DNA of 14,750 nt from Escherichia coli (GTDB lineage Bacteria; Pseudomonadota; Gammaproteobacteria; Enterobacterales; Enterobacteriaceae), in assembly GCF_003334315.1 (NCBI RefSeq), contig NZ_QOWR01000077.1; one strand, 5' to 3'. Position 1 is the first letter of the stretch; each line of letters begins with the position of its first letter. The notes under the pieces were generated by a model. It saw only the letters and a list, made by a program, of their open reading frames with translations. It did no database searches and was not told where the DNA came from. Made by a program: the position numbers and the translations under genes. Shown here in pieces: positions 1-9,390 of the stretch.

Positions 1-375
1 GACGAACAGTGGGGCTACGTCGGTGCTAAATCACGTCAGCGCTGGCTGTTTTACGCGTATGACAGGATACGGAGGACAGTTGTGGCGCACGTTTTCGGTG
101 AACGCACTATGGCGACGCTGGGGCGTCTTATGAGCCTGCTGTCACCCTTTGACGTGGTGATATGGATGACGGATGGCTGGCCGCTGTATGAATCCCGCCT
201 GAAGGGAAAGCTGCACGTAATCAGCAAGCGATATACGCAGCGAATTGAGCGGCATAACCTGAATCTGAGGCAGCACCTGGCACGGCTGGGACGGAAGTCG
301 CTGTCGTTCTCAAAATCGGTGGAGCTGCATGACAAAGTCATCGGGCATTATCTGAACATAAAACACTATCAATAA
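1..375 (+). CDS. insB: IS1 transposase InsB, C-terminal part (5' end outside window; normally made as an InsA-InsB fusion by -1 frameshift)
   Basis: Frame 1 from nt 1 reads [67 protein letters not shown]...HYLNIKHYQ*, with the stop at 373-375. The ORF track entry 82..375 is the same frame starting at an internal GTG. Confidence 0.9.
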
Positions 376-390
376 GTTGGAGTCATTACC
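1..390 (+). mobile_element. IS1: IS1 insertion sequence, 3' portion only (right terminus at 390; the rest of the element lies upstream of the window)
   Basis: Sequence ends ...AAACACTATCAATAAGTTGGAGTCATTACC at 361-390, which matches the IS1 right terminal inverted repeat as I recall it. The whole stretch translates in frame as the C-terminal part of InsB. The last ~286 bp are identical to the reverse complement of the IS1 copy at 14298-14583. Confidence 0.93.
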
Positions 391-442
391 TTAAAGCGAT
401 TGTAAGCTAATGTATGTAATAAATGAGATAATTTACAGTAAG

Positions 443-478
443 CTAAAAATCAGCCAGGCGATAATGACCTGGCTGATA
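443..478 (-). terminator. Rho-independent terminator directly downstream of the yeaH stop
   Basis: Perfect 10-bp stem ATCAGCCAGG (449-458) / CCTGGCTGAT (468-477) with a 9-nt loop. On the minus-strand RNA it is followed by UUUU (plus-strand A-run 445-448). It starts 4 nt after the yeaH stop codon (482-484). Confidence 0.7.
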
Positions 479-481
479 GTT

Positions 482-1777
<1,296 letters not shown>

Positions 1778-1877
1778 CTACATTTGCCAACTGTATGCTA
1801 CGCCTGTGTTGCCGCTTCTCAGGCCCACGGTTCGCTGTCGTTGTAGGCCCAGTAACATGTGTACCGGGCCAGGGTTG

Positions 1878-3812
1878 TTAAGACGATTTACGTACGCGCA
1901 AATACCATTCGCACAGTAAACGCACCTGTTTACGGGTGTAGCCTTTTTCCATCATACGGTCGACAAAGTCGTCGTGTTTCTTCTGCTCGTCGGTTGACGT
2001 TTTGGCGTTAAACGAGATAACCGGCAACAGCTCCTCGGTATTGGAGAACATTTTCTTCTCGATGACCGTGCGCAGTTTTTCATAGCTGGTCCAGTTCGGA
2101 TTGCGTCCGCTGTTATTCGCTCTGGCGCGCAGTACGAAGTTAACAATCTCGTTGCGGAAATCTTTTGGATTACTGATCCCCGCCGGTTTCTCGATTTTCT
2201 CCAGCTCGGCGTTAAGAGACTCGCGGTCAAACAGCTGCCCGGTATCCGGATCGCGATACTCCTGATCCTGAATCCAGAAATCCGCGTAGGTAACATAACG
2301 GTCGAAAATGTTTTGCCCATATTCGGAATAGGATTCAAGGTAGGCCGTCTGGATCTCTTTGCCGATAAACTCGGCATATTTCGGGATCAGATAACCTTTC
2401 AGGAACTCCAGATAGCGTTCTGCCTGCTCTTGTGGGAACTGCTCGCGCTCAATCTGCTGTTCCAGGACGTAGAACAGATGGACCGGGTTTGCTGCCACTT
2501 CTACATGAGCGAAGTTGAACACGCGGGAGAGGATCTTAAACGCAAAACGCGTCGACAGACCGTTCATCCCTTCATCGACACCGGCGTAGTCACGATATTC
2601 CTGATACGACTTGGCTTTGGGATCGGTGTCTTTCAGACTTTCGCCATCATAAACCCGCATCTTTGAATAAATGCTGGAGTTTTCTGGCTCTTTCAGGCGC
2701 GAAAGAATGGAAAAACGTGACAGTGTTTCGAGCGTGCCAGGGGCGCATGGGGCGTGAGTCAATTCACTGTGATTAAGCAATTTCTCGTAGATTTTGATCT
2801 CTTCGGAAATGCGCAAGCAATACGGCACCTTCACGATGTAAACACGATCGAGGAAGGCTTCGTTGTTTTTGTTATTACGGAAAGTGACCCATTCGGACTC
2901 GTTCGAGTGTGCGAGAATAATCCCGTTGAACGGCAGGGCGGAGATACCTTCCGTCCCGTTGTAGTTACCTTCCTGAGTGGCGGTTAACAAGGGATGCAGC
3001 ACTTTAATCGGTGCTTTAAACATCTCAACGAATTCCATGATCCCCTGATTGGCGCGGCACAGCGCACCGGAATAGCCGTAGGCGTCCGGGTCATTCTGCG
3101 CGTAGTGTTCGAGTTTACGAATATCGACTTTCCCAACCAGCGCGGAGATGTCCTGGTTGTTCTCATCGCCGGGTTCCGTTTTGGCGATAGCAATTTGTTG
3201 CAGAATTGACGGCCAGACCTTCACTACCCGGAACTTAGTGATATCGCCACCAAATTCATGCAGGCGTTTTGCCGCCCACGGCGACATGATGGTGCCGAGA
3301 TAACGGCGAGGAATGCCATACTCTTTTTCCAGAATCTGCGCATCTTCCTGCGGATTGAAAAGACAGAACGGATGATCGTTGACCGGGCTACGCTCACCGT
3401 TCGCGCTCAATACATAAATCGGTACGAGCTGCATTAATGATTTCAGTCGCTCAGCAAGCGATGATTTACCCCCACCCACAGGCCCCAGCAGATACAGGAT
3501 TTGTTTCTTCTCTTCCAGCCCCTGAGCCGCGTGTTTCAGATAAGAGACAATCTGTTCAATCGCGTCTTCCATGCCGTAAAACTCTTCAAACGCCGGATAA
3601 CGTGCAATGACCCGGTTAGAAAAGAGTCGAGAAAGTCTGGGTTCCTGGGCTGTATCGACCATGACAGGCTCACCGATAGCCATCAATAGCCGCTCAGCCG
3701 CGTTGGCATAAGCACTGCGATCTTGCCGACAAGTGGTAAGAAACTCCTGCAGTGTGAACTCTTCGTCCTTGGCAGCTTCATATCGCTGGCGATAGTGATC
3801 GAATATATTCAT
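1878..3812 (-). CDS. yeaG: YeaG, PrkA-family serine protein kinase with an AAA-type ATPase fold
   Basis: 644-aa ORF beginning MNIFDHYRQRYEAAKDEEFTLQEFL, with a Walker A motif GPVGGGKSS. Length and sequence match my recollection of E. coli YeaG. An AAGGA SD sits ~8 nt upstream of the ATG. Confidence 0.95.
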   Translation of the reverse strand: MNIFDHYRQRYEAAKDEEFTLQEFLTTCRQDRSAYANAAERLLMAIGEPVMVDTAQEPRLSRLFSNRVIARYPAFEEFYGMEDAIEQIVSYLKHAAQGLEEKKQILYLLGPVGGGKSSLAERLKSLMQLVPIYVLSANGERSPVNDHPFCLFNPQEDAQILEKEYGIPRRYLGTIMSPWAAKRLHEFGGDITKFRVVKVWPSILQQIAIAKTEPGDENNQDISALVGKVDIRKLEHYAQNDPDAYGYSGALCRANQGIMEFVEMFKAPIKVLHPLLTATQEGNYNGTEGISALPFNGIILAHSNESEWVTFRNNKNNEAFLDRVYIVKVPYCLRISEEIKIYEKLLNHSELTHAPCAPGTLETLSRFSILSRLKEPENSSIYSKMRVYDGESLKDTDPKAKSYQEYRDYAGVDEGMNGLSTRFAFKILSRVFNFAHVEVAANPVHLFYVLEQQIEREQFPQEQAERYLEFLKGYLIPKYAEFIGKEIQTAYLESYSEYGQNIFDRYVTYADFWIQDQEYRDPDTGQLFDRESLNAELEKIEKPAGISNPKDFRNEIVNFVLRARANNSGRNPNWTSYEKLRTVIEKKMFSNTEELLPVISFNAKTSTDEQKKHDDFVDRMMEKGYTRKQVRLLCEWYLRVRKSS

Positions 3813-3915
3813 GGTATGCCGTCCTTTCGTTTTTTAGCACAGGTTAAGAGCCGTTCATATGAATAGTAGAGGCTCCCGGAAGAGGTAAACTGAACGACGT
3901 CTCTTGCTAAAACAC

Positions 3916-3931
3916 AGCAACTCTCATGCCA
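3916..3931 (-). promoter_or_regulatory. Candidate sigma54 (RpoN) -24/-12 promoter for yeaG-yeaH
   Basis: Minus strand reads 5'-TGGCATGAGAGTTGCT-3' (reverse complement of 3916-3931), matching the TGGCAC-N5-TTGCW consensus with the GG and GC dinucleotides correctly spaced. The predicted start is near plus-coordinate 3905, about 90 nt upstream of the yeaG ATG. Confidence 0.55.
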
Positions 3932-4247
3932 TTTTATCGACGATGAGAACAACGTGCCCGGTGATACACCTTCAAAATTAAGCGTAGATGGCAAATGGAA
4001 AACTTGCCTGCACGGCTTTCTTAATTTCAATGGCATATCAACAACTCATCCATAAATTTTGCATAATTAATGTAAAGACCAGGCTCGCCAGTAACGCTAA
4101 ATTCATTTGGCTGTAAGCGCGGTGTCATCCGCGTCAGGAAAATTAAACAGTTACTTTAAAAAATGAAAACGTAAAAAGGTTGGGTTTCGATGTATTGACG
4201 GGTAAACTTTGTCGCCCGCTAAACATTTGTTTAAGGAATGATTAATT

Positions 4248-4994
4248 GTGACCAAACTCAAACTTCTGGCACTTGGAGTGCTTATCGCAACGTCTGCAGG
4301 CGTAGCGCACGCTGAAGGTAAATTTTCCCTGGGCGCAGGCGTAGGTGTCGTTGAACACCCATATAAAGATTACGATACCGATGTTTACCCAGTACCGGTA
4401 ATCAACTATGAAGGCGATAACTTCTGGTTCCGTGGCTTAGGTGGTGGTTACTACCTGTGGAATGACGCAACGGATAAACTTTCAATTACCGCTTACTGGT
4501 CGCCGCTTTACTTCAAAGCGAAAGACAGTGGCGATCACCAAATGCGTCACCTGGATGACCGTAAGAGCACCATGATGGCTGGTCTGTCTTATGCTCACTT
4601 TACCCAGTACGGTTACCTGCGTACCACCCTGGCTGGCGATACCCTGGATAACAGCAACGGCATCGTCTGGGATATGGCCTGGTTGTATCGTTACACCAAC
4701 GGTGGCCTGACCGTGACTCCGGGTATTGGTGTGCAGTGGAACAGCGAAAACCAGAACGAATACTATTATGGCGTATCGCGCAAAGAGTCCGCTCGCAGCG
4801 GTCTGCGTGGCTATAACCCGAACGACAGCTGGAGCCCTTACCTGGAGCTGAGCGCCAGCTACAACTTCCTCGGCGACTGGAGTGTTTACGGTACCGCACG
4901 CTACACCCGTCTGTCTGATGAAGTTACTGACAGCCCGATGGTGGATAAATCCTGGACTGGCCTGATTTCTACCGGGATCACCTACAAATTCTGA
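4248..4994 (+). CDS. mipA: MipA, MltA-interacting outer-membrane scaffold protein (OmpV/MipA family)
   Basis: 248-aa ORF starting at GTG 4248 (MTKLKLLALGVLIATSAGVAHA-EGK, a typical signal peptide). Length and sequence match MipA as I recall it. AAGGA SD at 4234-4238. Confidence 0.93.
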   Translation: MTKLKLLALGVLIATSAGVAHAEGKFSLGAGVGVVEHPYKDYDTDVYPVPVINYEGDNFWFRGLGGGYYLWNDATDKLSITAYWSPLYFKAKDSGDHQMRHLDDRKSTMMAGLSYAHFTQYGYLRTTLAGDTLDNSNGIVWDMAWLYRYTNGGLTVTPGIGVQWNSENQNEYYYGVSRKESARSGLRGYNPNDSWSPYLELSASYNFLGDWSVYGTARYTRLSDEVTDSPMVDKSWTGLISTGITYKF

Positions 4995-5023
4995 TAATGC
5001 ATCTTTCCAGGGCATTTTGTGCA

Positions 5024-5051
5024 TAAAAACAGGGCGTCACGCCCTGTTTTG
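5024..5051 (+). terminator. Rho-independent terminator downstream of mipA
   Basis: Stem CAGGGCG (5030-5036) / CGCCCTG (5040-5046) with loop TCA, followed by TTTT (5047-5050). An A-run precedes the stem, so it looks bidirectional. Confidence 0.7.
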
Positions 5052-5083
5052 CATTACGGTGGTGCAATACCTGGGAGGAAACA

Positions 5084-5938
5084 ATGCAACAAAAAATGAT
5101 TCAATTTAGTGGCGATGTCTCACTGCCAGCCATAGGGCAGGGAACATGGTATATGGGCGAAGATGCCAGTAAGTGTAAAACAGAAGTTGCTGCACTACGC
5201 GCGGGCATTGAGCTCGGTTTAACCCTCATTGATACCGCCGAAATGTATGCCGATGGTGGTGCCGAAAAGGTGGTTGGGGAAGCATTAACCGGTCTGCGTG
5301 ATAACGTCTTTCTCGTCTCTAAAGTCTATCCGTGGAATGCTGGCGGGCAAAAAGCGATAAATGCATGCGAAGCCAGTTTACGCCGTCTCAATACTGATTA
5401 TCTCGATCTCTACTTATTACACTGGTCTGGCAGTTTCGCTTTTGAAGAGACTGTCGCAGCGATGGAAAAATTGATCGCCCAGGGAAAAATCCGCCGCTGG
5501 GGCGTTTCGAACCTTGATTATGCTGATATGCAGGAACTCTGGCAGCTGCCGGGGGGAAATCAGTGTGCCACTAATCAGGTGCTTTACCATCTCGGTTCAC
5601 GAGGGATTGAGTACGATCTACTCCCCTGGTGCCAGCAACAGCAGATGCCGGTGATGGCTTACAGTCCGTTAGCCCAGGCCGGGCGGTTGCGCAATGGACT
5701 GTTAAAAAACGCGGTAGTCAACGAAATTGCACATGCTCACAATATCAGCGCGGCGCAAGTATTGTTGGCGTGGGTAATCAGCCATCAGGGTGTGATGGCG
5801 ATTCCAAAAGCGGCCACGATTGCCCATGTCCAACAGAATGCGGCTGTGCTTGAGGTCGAACTTTCGTCAGCGGAATTAGCCATGCTGGACAAAGCGTATC
5901 CGGCACCAAAAGGAAAAACTGCGCTGGATATGGTGTGA
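5084..5938 (+). CDS. yeaE: YeaE, aldo-keto reductase (NADPH-dependent methylglyoxal reductase family)
   Basis: 284-aa ORF, the length I recall for YeaE. Strong SD GGGAGGA 6-12 nt upstream of the ATG. Confidence 0.93.
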   Translation: MQQKMIQFSGDVSLPAIGQGTWYMGEDASKCKTEVAALRAGIELGLTLIDTAEMYADGGAEKVVGEALTGLRDNVFLVSKVYPWNAGGQKAINACEASLRRLNTDYLDLYLLHWSGSFAFEETVAAMEKLIAQGKIRRWGVSNLDYADMQELWQLPGGNQCATNQVLYHLGSRGIEYDLLPWCQQQQMPVMAYSPLAQAGRLRNGLLKNAVVNEIAHAHNISAAQVLLAWVISHQGVMAIPKAATIAHVQQNAAVLEVELSSAELAMLDKAYPAPKGKTALDMV

Positions 5939-5947
5939 TGTTGATAC

Positions 5948-5972
5948 GTGCCGGATGCATCGCACCCGGCAC
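5948..5972. terminator. Hairpin in the convergent yeaE / yeaD 3' intergenic region (weak terminator candidate)
   Basis: GTGCCGG (5948-5954) pairs with CCGGCAC (5966-5972) around an 11-nt loop. There is no clear U-tract on either strand, so this is a structural call only. Confidence 0.3.
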
Positions 5973-5988
5973 ACAACATTGACGCAAA

Positions 5989-6873
5989 TTAACGTTTGGC
6001 AACGCGAATGGATTGCGCCAGATGTGCAGGTTTTTCTTTGGTCACTTTTTGCATTTCTGAGGCGTAAGCTGTTTCTACACAAACAAAGGTCTTGTAGCCA
6101 TCGTCCGGCATGTCGCCCATGCTAACTGAAAGCGCCGGTCCCGGGTTCCAGCCTACAACGTTCAGATGATGCTGGTGGCCTACGGCGATAATACGATTCA
6201 GCGCTTCATCATTAATCACGCTGCAATCTTGCGGATTCAGATACACGCGATCGGTACGGTCAGGGAAGGTCTGAATACCGTCGGTCAGTACATCTTCTTT
6301 CGCGTCATTTACTTTATCAATGAAGCGATCGCCCAGCCCACTGACGCTTACCTTAGCGATATCACCCACGTTAAAGTAGGTATGCAGGGCAGAGGTGGTT
6401 TCAAATTCGCCGTGTGCTTCAAGATCGATTTCACAGGTTTTACCCACGCGGAAATGCGCTAACAGAGTAAAGTCGTGCGGCCAGAATTTTTTCGTCTCTT
6501 CGCTTTGTGTCAATTCAAAAGTCAGCGCTACGCCATTAGCATCTTCACGATGTGATTTCAGCGTCCACGGCAGGTTGCGGGCAAAACCGTGCGCAGGCAG
6601 GCCTTGTTGTGCCGCCGGACCAAACCACGGCCAGCAAACCGGTACGCCACCGCGAATAGCGATGCCATTTTTGAACGGTGTGTTGTTGCTCAACCACAGA
6701 ACTTCTTCTTCACCCGCAGGTTTCCACGAGAGAAGGTGTGCGCCCTGTAATGCAAAAGAGGCTTTTACCTGGGGATGATCGACCACAATGAGGTCCAGTT
6801 CATCCAGTTTACGACGGGAGAGGACAGGGGAGATTTGTTCGATGACCGGAAGGGCAAAAATTTTCTTAATCAT
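5989..6873 (-). CDS. yeaD: YeaD, putative D-hexose-6-phosphate mutarotase (glucose-6-phosphate 1-epimerase family)
   Basis: ORF track gives 301 aa from ATG 6894. I place the start at the internal ATG 6873 (MIKKIFALPV..., 294 aa), which matches YeaD as I recall it and has an AAAGGA SD 7 nt upstream. Confidence 0.88.
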   Translation of the reverse strand: MIKKIFALPVIEQISPVLSRRKLDELDLIVVDHPQVKASFALQGAHLLSWKPAGEEEVLWLSNNTPFKNGIAIRGGVPVCWPWFGPAAQQGLPAHGFARNLPWTLKSHREDANGVALTFELTQSEETKKFWPHDFTLLAHFRVGKTCEIDLEAHGEFETTSALHTYFNVGDIAKVSVSGLGDRFIDKVNDAKEDVLTDGIQTFPDRTDRVYLNPQDCSVINDEALNRIIAVGHQHHLNVVGWNPGPALSVSMGDMPDDGYKTFVCVETAYASEMQKVTKEKPAHLAQSIRVAKR

Positions 6874-6904
6874 GACGCAGTCCTTTAACTTCATTTTATC
6901 AGGT

Positions 6905-6935
6905 AAAAAAAAGAGCGACCGAAGTCGCTCTTTTT
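6905..6935 (-). terminator. Rho-independent terminator of gapA, looks bidirectional
   Basis: Minus-strand RNA reads AAAAAGAGCGAC-UUCG-GUCGCUCUUUUUUUU: an 8-bp GC-rich stem with a UUCG tetraloop and a long U-tract, 22 nt after the gapA stop. The plus strand carries the mirror A-run/T-run. Confidence 0.8.
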
Positions 6936-6956
6936 AGATCACAGTGTCATCTCAAC

Positions 6957-7964
<1,008 letters not shown>

Positions 7965-8159
7965 CTATTTGTTAGTGAATAAAAGGTTGCCTGTAAAATT
8001 ACAAAAACCTTACGCAGCGTCAAGCGGAATCGTGTCAATCATTGCGACAAATCAATCCTGTGCCTAAGCATTACGCGACTGACTCGCCTCACTCTTCCTT
8101 TGGGCTTGAAACCACATGGGGTCGGCGCCCCGAATTTTAAAGGGCAATTACGATAAAAA

Positions 8160-8175
8160 TGTGATTTTCATCACG
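8160..8175. promoter_or_regulatory. CRP-like binding site in the gapA / msrB divergent intergenic region
   Basis: TGTGA-TTTTCA-TCACG at 8160-8175 matches the CRP core consensus TGTGA-N6-TCACA at 9 of 10 positions. It lies ~215 bp upstream of the gapA ATG and ~120 bp upstream of the msrB ATG. Confidence 0.4.
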
Positions 8176-8242
8176 ATTTAGGTGCAGCCATTTCGTCGAG
8201 ATCAAGTTTAGGACAAAATTTTGCCAGTTGGTGTTAATGTTT

Positions 8243-8251
8243 TGTTAGAAT
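8243..8251 (+). promoter_or_regulatory. Candidate extended -10 promoter element for msrB
   Basis: TGTTAGAAT at 8243-8251 (TGn + TAGAAT, 5 of 6 to TATAAT), ~43 nt upstream of the msrB ATG. A TTGCCA -35-like hexamer at 8221-8226 is 19 bp away, which is a suboptimal spacer. Confidence 0.35.
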
Positions 8252-8293
8252 CAGTCACGTAATGTGAGCACGATTAAAGTGAGATGTGAGCAA

Positions 8294-8707
8294 ATGGCTA
8301 ATAAACCTTCGGCAGAAGAACTGAAAAAAAATTTGTCCGAGATGCAGTTTTACGTGACGCAGAATCATGGGACAGAACCGCCATTTACGGGTCGTTTACT
8401 GCATAACAAGCGTGACGGCGTATATCACTGTTTGATCTGCGATGCCCCGCTGTTTCATTCCGAAACCAAGTATGATTCCGGCTGTGGCTGGCCCAGTTTC
8501 TACGAACCGGTGAGTGAAGAATCCATTCGTTATATCAAAGACTTGTCACATGGAATGCAGCGCATAGAAATTCGTTGCGGTAACTGTGATGCCCATCTGG
8601 GGCATGTCTTCCCTGACGGGCCGCAGCCAACGGGCGAACGTTATTGTGTTAACTCTGCCTCTTTACGCTTTACCGATGGCGAAAACGGCGAAGAAATCAA
8701 CGGTTGA
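8294..8707 (+). CDS. msrB: Peptide methionine-(R)-sulfoxide reductase MsrB
   Basis: ORF track gives 147 aa from 8264. I place the start at ATG 8294 ([33 protein letters not shown]..., 137 aa). It carries the two CxxC zinc motifs (CLIC, CGNC) and the catalytic Cys context RYCVNSASL. Confidence 0.95.
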
Positions 8708-8748
8708 AAAAACGATTCAGCAACTTATTCCACAGGAGCGGAAAAATT

Positions 8749-9021
8749 ATGAATCTTGATGACATTATCAACAGCATGACGCCTGAGGTATACCAGCGTT
8801 TGTCGACCGCCGTTGAACTGGGGAAATGGCCCGATGGCGTTGCGTTGACCGAGGAACAAAAAGAGAACTGCCTGCAACTGGTGATGCTGTGGCAAGCCCG
8901 CCATAATACCGAAGCACAGCATATGACAATTGACACAAATGGTCAGATGGTCATGAAGAGCAAACAGCAGTTAAAAGAAGATTTTGGTATCTCAGCAAAG
9001 CCTATTGCCATGTTTAAGTAA
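8749..9021 (+). CDS. yeaC: YeaC, DUF1315 family small protein
   Basis: ORF track gives 105 aa from 8704. I place the start at ATG 8749 (MNLDDIINSMTPEVYQRL..., 90 aa) with SD CAGGAG at 8733-8738. It lies 41 bp downstream of msrB on the same strand. Confidence 0.9.
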   Translation: MNLDDIINSMTPEVYQRLSTAVELGKWPDGVALTEEQKENCLQLVMLWQARHNTEAQHMTIDTNGQMVMKSKQQLKEDFGISAKPIAMFK

Positions 9022-9027
9022 GTGGTT

Positions 9028-9060
9028 TATCCCCTTTTTGCCGCGGTTATAAAGGGGATA
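9028..9060. other. Perfect 10-bp hairpin directly after the yeaC stop, with no U-tract
   Basis: TATCCCCTTT (9028-9037) pairs with AAAGGGGATA (9051-9060) around a 13-nt loop that contains the palindrome CCGCGG. Neither strand has a following T-run. Confidence 0.45.
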
Positions 9061-9255
9061 GCCAACAATGACCCCACGACTCATCTCAATTATCTCGCCA
9101 TGACCTGGCTAAGTCCCAGTCCGATCTCTTGCCGTCGCGTTCACGCCTGAATGACTTCTCCTGAACTTAAGTCTCAGACCTATTTGGCCGGTAATCCCTC
9201 TCGAATTTGCTCTTTTTGCGTTCCGCCTTCCACCAACCTGTAACAGACCCAGCCA

Positions 9256-9315
9256 TTTTCTGCGTAATTGTGATCTAAGTTGTAAAACGCAGATCATTAT
9301 CTGTGTTTTGCAGAT
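9256..9315. promoter_or_regulatory. Cluster of overlapping dyad symmetries (TCTGYR / YRCAGA half-sites) upstream of ydjL; candidate operator or activator site
   Basis: Half-sites TCTGCG (9260-9265, plus), CGCAGA (9288-9293), TCTGTG (9301-9306) and TGCAGA (9309-9314). They include the 26-bp near-palindrome AAAACGCAGAT-CATT-ATCTGTGTTTT (9284-9309) with 10 of 11 arm matches. The cluster sits just upstream of a TTGACC hexamer at 9322-9327. Confidence 0.3.
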
Positions 9316-9321
9316 TTAATG

Positions 9322-9350
9322 TTGACCTCAAAAATCATGTGGGTAAGTAT
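9322..9350 (+). promoter_or_regulatory. Candidate sigma70 promoter for the ydjL operon (good -35, weak -10)
   Basis: TTGACC at 9322-9327, a 17-bp spacer, then AAGTAT at 9345-9350 (3 of 6 to TATAAT). The ydjL ATG is at 9391 with SD AGAGGA at 9377-9382. The weak -10 would fit an activator-dependent promoter. Confidence 0.25.
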
Positions 9351-9390
9351 GATGGCCATCTAAGCAAAACAAAACACAGAGGATGACGCA

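Follow-up and report, generated by a model that had tools for sequence, protein, structure and literature searches.

The two IS1 copies at the ends of the window, a 14,750-bp stretch of Escherichia coli contig NZ_QOWR01000077.1 (assembly GCF_003334315.1), are very probably two different pre-existing isoforms that inserted independently. The left copy would be a widespread mosaic isoform, and the right copy is of the majority A/B type. The left copy is a recombinant (mosaic) IS1: a block of donor-clade states is flanked by recipient-clade states, and an exact donor tract exists.

IS1 is 768 bp long and carries insA and insB, which are joined by a -1 frameshift at an A6C site to produce the InsAB' transposase. 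Both copies are cut by the edges of the window. The left copy lies on the plus strand at 1..390 and corresponds in an ungapped alignment to IS1 nt 379..768, such that IS1 nt equals window position + 378. Without gaps, it is 97.2% identical to K-12 IS1A over nt 379..768. The 3' part of its insB reads open to a TAA stop at 373..375, and its 23-bp right inverted repeat (IRR) occupies 368..390. The right copy lies on the minus strand at 14298..14750, corresponding to IS1 nt 316..768, with its IRR at 14298..14320. Both repeats are identical to the IRR of K-12 IS1A, and the portions of insB visible in the window are open in the two copies; their left inverted repeats, insA and the A6C site fall beyond the window. 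The copies are inverted with respect to one another, with their right ends facing inwards, and bracket 13.9 kb of chromosome that includes gapA. Such an inverted IS1 pair around the gapA segment is a composite-transposon-like or invertible arrangement.

We compared 1..390 with the reverse complement of 14298..14687 and found exactly 10 mismatches in the ungapped alignment, at window positions 15, 24, 33, 36, 67, 69, 74, 78, 84 and 93. A first-pass annotation of this DNA had given the same number and had placed all of the differences in the first ~104 bp, followed by ~286 bp of identity towards the terminus. The clustering and the identity are both confirmed, with adjusted limits: the last difference is at 93, and no mismatch occurs over 94..390, a stretch of 297 bp. 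Identity ends precisely at the IS1 terminus, where 391 and 14297 differ. The chance that 10 differences span 79 bp or fewer out of 390 is P = 2.9e-6, and the chance that all 10 sit in the first 93 of 390 is P = 4e-7. Thus, the differences are not spread evenly along the copies, which the annotation had named as grounds against a mosaic; all 10 lie in 15..93 (P ~3e-6). Read in the insB frame, eight of them leave the protein unchanged and the other two are conservative (L66I and K68R; DRIRRT in the left copy versus DRLRKT in the right), and our codon comparison agrees with the earlier reading on this point. Position 67 determines I or L and position 74 R or K, while the change at 69 is silent, in the third position of the codon that also contains 67. 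The annotation further described two distinct functional isoforms. They are indeed distinct; as to function, the portions of insB that can be seen in the window are intact in both.

The IS1 elements of E. coli K-12 fall into four sequence types, IS1A/E, IS1B/C, IS1D and IS1F (Umeda and Ohtsubo 1991, via PMC12428005), of which IS1D appears intermediate between the A and B types (PMC12428005). We retrieved the six K-12 elements (IS1A-F) and aligned them without gaps to both window copies. The mismatch counts of the K-12 types against IS1A were 9, 9 and 73, in agreement with the published values (PMC12428005), and IS1F, the fourth type, is ~9.5% divergent. Neither window copy is identical to any of the K-12 types. 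Over IS1 nt 316-768 the right copy has one mismatch to IS1B, one to IS1D and three to IS1A. It matched 7605 of the 9484 matching E. coli records at 99% identity or above, with 100% matches among those listed. The right copy is the majority A/B-type IS1 sequence.

Compared with IS1A-F, the left copy has an A/B-type backbone except at IS1 nt 393..471. Its terminal segment (94..390, plus strand, 297 bp) is A/B-type, with no difference from either the right copy or K-12 IS1A/IS1E. Seven of the 10 variant bases of the left copy have the K-12 IS1F state. K-12 IS1F has ~30 further differences from the A/B type at nt 487-768, and the left copy is A/B-type at all of these. We considered whether constraint could be the cause of the 297-bp identity and rejected it, because F-type elements vary within that stretch. 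The segment tolerates variation, the IS1F-like clade and the A/B type having 25 differing sites there, and the F-clade elements that differ at these 25 sites include ones with intact ORFs.

The IS1F-clade patch in the left copy has a visible extent of 15..93 (IS1 nt 393..471, plus strand), which holds all 10 differences. From the diagnostic sites, the maximal tract on the same strand is IS1 373..486 (window <1..108), giving a patch length of 79-114 bp. The left breakpoint falls within IS1 373-392, at or barely beyond the window edge. The right breakpoint interval is 94..108 on the plus strand (IS1 nt 472..486), between the last F-type site at 471 and the first A/B diagnostic site at 487. This location of the breakpoint at IS1 472..486 comes from the alignment to catalogued IS1 isoforms that the first-pass annotation had proposed as a check. 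That annotation had placed a conversion tract across the terminal region. The boundaries show otherwise, since the terminal 297 bp are universal A/B-type sequence and the foreign part is the patch of 79-114 bp.

All 10 patch bases match the states of F-clade copies (pL73-2, p720632 and the IS1X2-like copy of ECCHD184), and IS1 nt 393-471 is identical, in an F-type context, in pL73-2, p720632, ECCHD184 and pSGB23. The pL73-2 IS1 is F-clade throughout, has intact ORFs and contains all 10 of the left-copy bases, including 456A and 471T. The window left copy shows 10 F-type sites and then 25 A/B-type diagnostic sites downstream, and in full-length copies with an identical left haplotype 35 B-type sites precede the patch. 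In the W5-6chr copy, 11 of 71 informative sites match pL73-2 rather than IS1B. Ten of these 11 form a contiguous run (P ~2e-11), and the eleventh, at 704, is an IS1B-private base. The earlier claim of a recombination mosaic, as opposed to random decay, is therefore upheld, since all 10 bases belong to a pre-existing divergent IS1 clade. A 40-nt core of the patch gave 0 matches in species-representative genomes.

K-12 IS1F was examined as a direct donor and rejected, since it is without 456A and 471T and its insB contains an internal stop. The actual donor differs from it in being a related, intact F-clade element with 456A and 471T, as found on pL73-2. The internal stop in the K-12 IS1F insB reads VVV*MTDGW, and the insB of the F-clade relative on pL73-2 is intact. 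K-12 IS1F has thus decayed within a clade in which other, apparently functional members persist.

We then looked at how often the left sequence recurs. The left 390 bp matched 289 E. coli records at 99% identity or above, and the best 30 of the 289 were all at 100%. The patch alone (window 1-108) matched 877 E. coli records at the same threshold, compared with 289 for the whole 390 bp, and therefore also occurs in other contexts. At 100% identity, the 390-bp haplotype is found in E. coli chromosomes and in plasmids of E. coli, E. albertii and Salmonella, including at least 19 plasmids. We inspected five full-length copies, from W5-6, S171-1, 2018-11-3CC, the AR_0085 plasmid and an E. albertii plasmid. 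All five are A/B-type over nt 1-372, on three different 5' backgrounds, and the inspected copies keep insA, insB and the A6C frameshift site intact. The haplotype occupies at least five contexts: an HNH/integrase island, shiA-yeeJ, aroD-ydiQ, a plasmid arsR-like gene and the window's own yeaH-cdgI site. Some of the database copies represent one vertically inherited insertion or one plasmid module, so the number of independent insertions is well below the record count.

Local conversion requires a haplotype and junction private to the locus, and this is not the case given the 289 E. coli records at 99% or above. The same junction in multiple contexts instead marks an inherited circulating isoform. 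In this respect the first-pass annotation, which treated the mosaic as a local event, is not supported: the haplotype and its junction recur in many unrelated chromosomes and plasmids. The annotation had also stated that a junction common to all copies of one isoform would speak against it, and such a common junction is what we observe in full-length copies at several sites. The 5' part of the left copy, 378 bp that lie outside the window, is probably A/B-type as well, as in the identical copies elsewhere. Its multiple insertion contexts suggest that the left-copy isoform is transposition-competent; counting against this, a 2025 study reported very poor transposition of non-consensus K-12 IS1 types (PMC12428005).

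Further A/B-F mosaics were found in the databases. The p720632 copy switches from B-type (1-372) to F-type (396-768), and the ECCHD184 copy, which PGAP assigns to the IS1X2 family, from A-type (1-265) to F-type (293-768); other mosaics have F-type tracts that end at 452, 456, 462 or 508. We also searched with a synthetic reciprocal query in which A/B-type 379-486 was joined to F-type 487-768. It gave matches of 99% or above in 142 records, and the two that we retrieved were both reciprocal-type mosaics. In the reciprocal-type mosaics 720632chr and ECONIH4, the switch lies in or adjoins 472-486. From these comparisons, the IS1 elements of Enterobacteriaceae are a recombining population derived from two deep clades. 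Strain 720632 holds at least three IS1 classes, namely the standard A/B type, a B-F mosaic (p720632_86) and a chromosomal reciprocal-type A/B-F-A mosaic, and is a good natural system for the study of IS1-IS1 recombination.

One plasmid insertion of IS1, by an arsR-like gene (WP_001175593.1), exists in several states. It is carried by plasmids of E. coli AR_0085, E. albertii, E. coli LA058 and Salmonella Saintpaul. The insertion keeps the same flanks, identical over 222 bp upstream and at least 307 bp downstream, and the rare 136C is common to its copies. No target-site duplication was evident at the junctions inspected. The F-type tract covers 262-508 in pSGB23, 262-456 in pLAO31 and only 396-471 in the AR_0085 and E. 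albertii plasmids, this last state being the haplotype of the window left copy. One insertion with three tract extents points to in-situ, non-reciprocal gene conversion, in which other IS1 copies overwrote parts of a resident one, and the short patch may be what is left of a longer F-type tract. The arsR-linked insertion is a clean natural example of in-situ IS conversion.

We propose that an F-like clade donated the internal patch of 79-114 bp to an A/B backbone by past homologous recombination. The route would most likely have been gene conversion between co-resident IS1 copies, presumably of the RecA type, and the patch may have been reduced by stepwise erosion from a longer F-type tract. 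The mosaic, with intact insA, insB and A6C site, would then have been disseminated by transposition and by plasmids. Gene conversion among IS1 copies, the mechanism put forward in the earlier annotation, is thus retained as the best account of how the isoforms originally arose, and set aside as an exchange between these two copies.

Two reciprocal crossovers offer another route to the same isoform, one that we regard as possible but rather unlikely. A p720632-like intermediate would have crossed with an A/B copy within nt 472-486, yielding the left-copy class and a reciprocal class (A/B at 1-471, F from 487). The intermediate and both predicted products exist, the left breakpoint interval of p720632 is that of the left copy, and 720632chr and ECONIH4 are of the reciprocal type, switching in or next to 472-486. 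However, the arsR-linked tracts are nested or overlapping (262-508, 262-456 and 396-471) at a fixed site, which fits non-reciprocal conversion better. Crossovers and conversion are inseparable by sequence alone, and both are recombination.

It is a good deal more doubtful that the F-type segment at ~IS1 nt 396-452 (InsB I66/R68) has been positively selected on A/B backbones, or that nt 452-522 is a recombination hot spot. Every sampled mosaic keeps F-type nt 396-452, and both reciprocal configurations of the 472-486 junction are found, in a sample that is biased to query-like copies. If the selection reading were true, the patch might tune transposase activity or regulation and would not be a neutral remnant of conversion.

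A local event at this locus is very unlikely. Here, two isoforms would have inserted and conversion or recombination between the inverted copies would have homogenised the terminal 297 bp in place. Inverted repeats only 13.9 kb apart are a favourable substrate, the terminal 297 bp are identical, and resident IS1 copies do undergo in-situ conversion. Against this, the left haplotype and its junction recur at 100% identity in many unrelated chromosomes of E. coli and in plasmids of E. albertii and Salmonella, the haplotype is found at other insertion sites, and the shared 297 bp are universal A/B-type sequence. A local event need not be invoked. An assembly artefact, in which the left copy would be a chimera built from reads of different IS1 elements, is highly improbable: short-read assemblers often collapse high-copy repeats such as IS1, but the 100% identical chimera is present in dozens of complete genomes and plasmids that were assembled independently. 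Independent point mutations in one copy, through decay or a mutational hot spot, have a negligible probability, as all 10 bases are the states of an existing divergent clade, their clustering has P ~3e-6, and eight of the 10 are synonymous with the reading frame intact.

The chromosomal segment between the copies (391..14297) provides context and does not belong to the mosaic. It contains yeaH, yeaG, mipA, yeaE, yeaD, gapA, msrB, yeaC, ydjL, ydjK, ydjJ, ydjI and a truncated ydjH, and is collinear with E. coli ET670, with four mismatches in 13,907 bp. The left IS1 (junction 390/391) occupies the yeaH-cdgI intergenic region, 91 bp past the yeaH stop and 55 bp before the start codon of cdgI (yeaI). 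At junction 14297/14298, the 948-nt ydjH is disrupted by the right IS1 after its nt 503. The truncated ydjH forms a 181-aa ORF (13774..14319) that reads into the IS1 end, and a search with this YdjH-IS1 ORF gave no exact-protein match. The two insertions were found together in no complete E. coli genome of the collection, and Rfam gave no RNA family within the window.

Other independent IS1 insertions are present in the yea-ydj region of the IS1-rich E. coli strains 2018-06-4CC, MB30, ET670 and 162.2: in cdgI, at the 3' end of ydjI, two in ydjJ, and one of opposite orientation in ydjH. In MB30, two copies of ISKpn26 are found there as well. The yea-ydj region seems to be a place where IS elements insert repeatedly or are tolerated.

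Mosaic IS1 homologues in enteric bacteria were reportedly described by Lawrence, Ochman and Hartl in 1992 (Genetics 131:9, PMID 1317318) and attributed to multiple recombination and horizontal transfer. Their elements likewise consist of IS1 segments from divergent lineages joined by recombination; that work covered a few PCR-derived elements across species, whereas here the patch, its breakpoints and its database frequency are defined. Elements of the IS1X2 type (ISfinder/PGAP naming) are active in E. coli deletions (PMC10569738). The ECCHD184 copy of this type carries the identical patch and is itself an A-type/F-type mosaic, but the IS1X2 type keeps an F-type 3' half, whereas the window left copy is A/B-type from nt 487 onwards. 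Gene conversion between dispersed E. coli repeats has been documented for rrn operons and prophages in ER2796 (PMC4444293). The diagnostic logic is the same, with clustered SNPs in a repeat and a perfect donor elsewhere; the ER2796 events are dated within a known laboratory pedigree, whereas the event described here is ancient relative to the spread of the isoform.

The phenomenon is already known, IS1 mosaicism having been described since 1992, and the left copy is a common circulating variant, so that the finding has little importance beyond annotation. It indicates that the IS1 copies of one genome can belong to different circulating recombinant isoforms. Differences between copies therefore call for a population comparison before they are taken as local decay or local conversion. 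The patch, with its 10 diagnostic bases in 79 bp, is usable as a marker of IS1 lineage when tracing IS1-mediated rearrangements.
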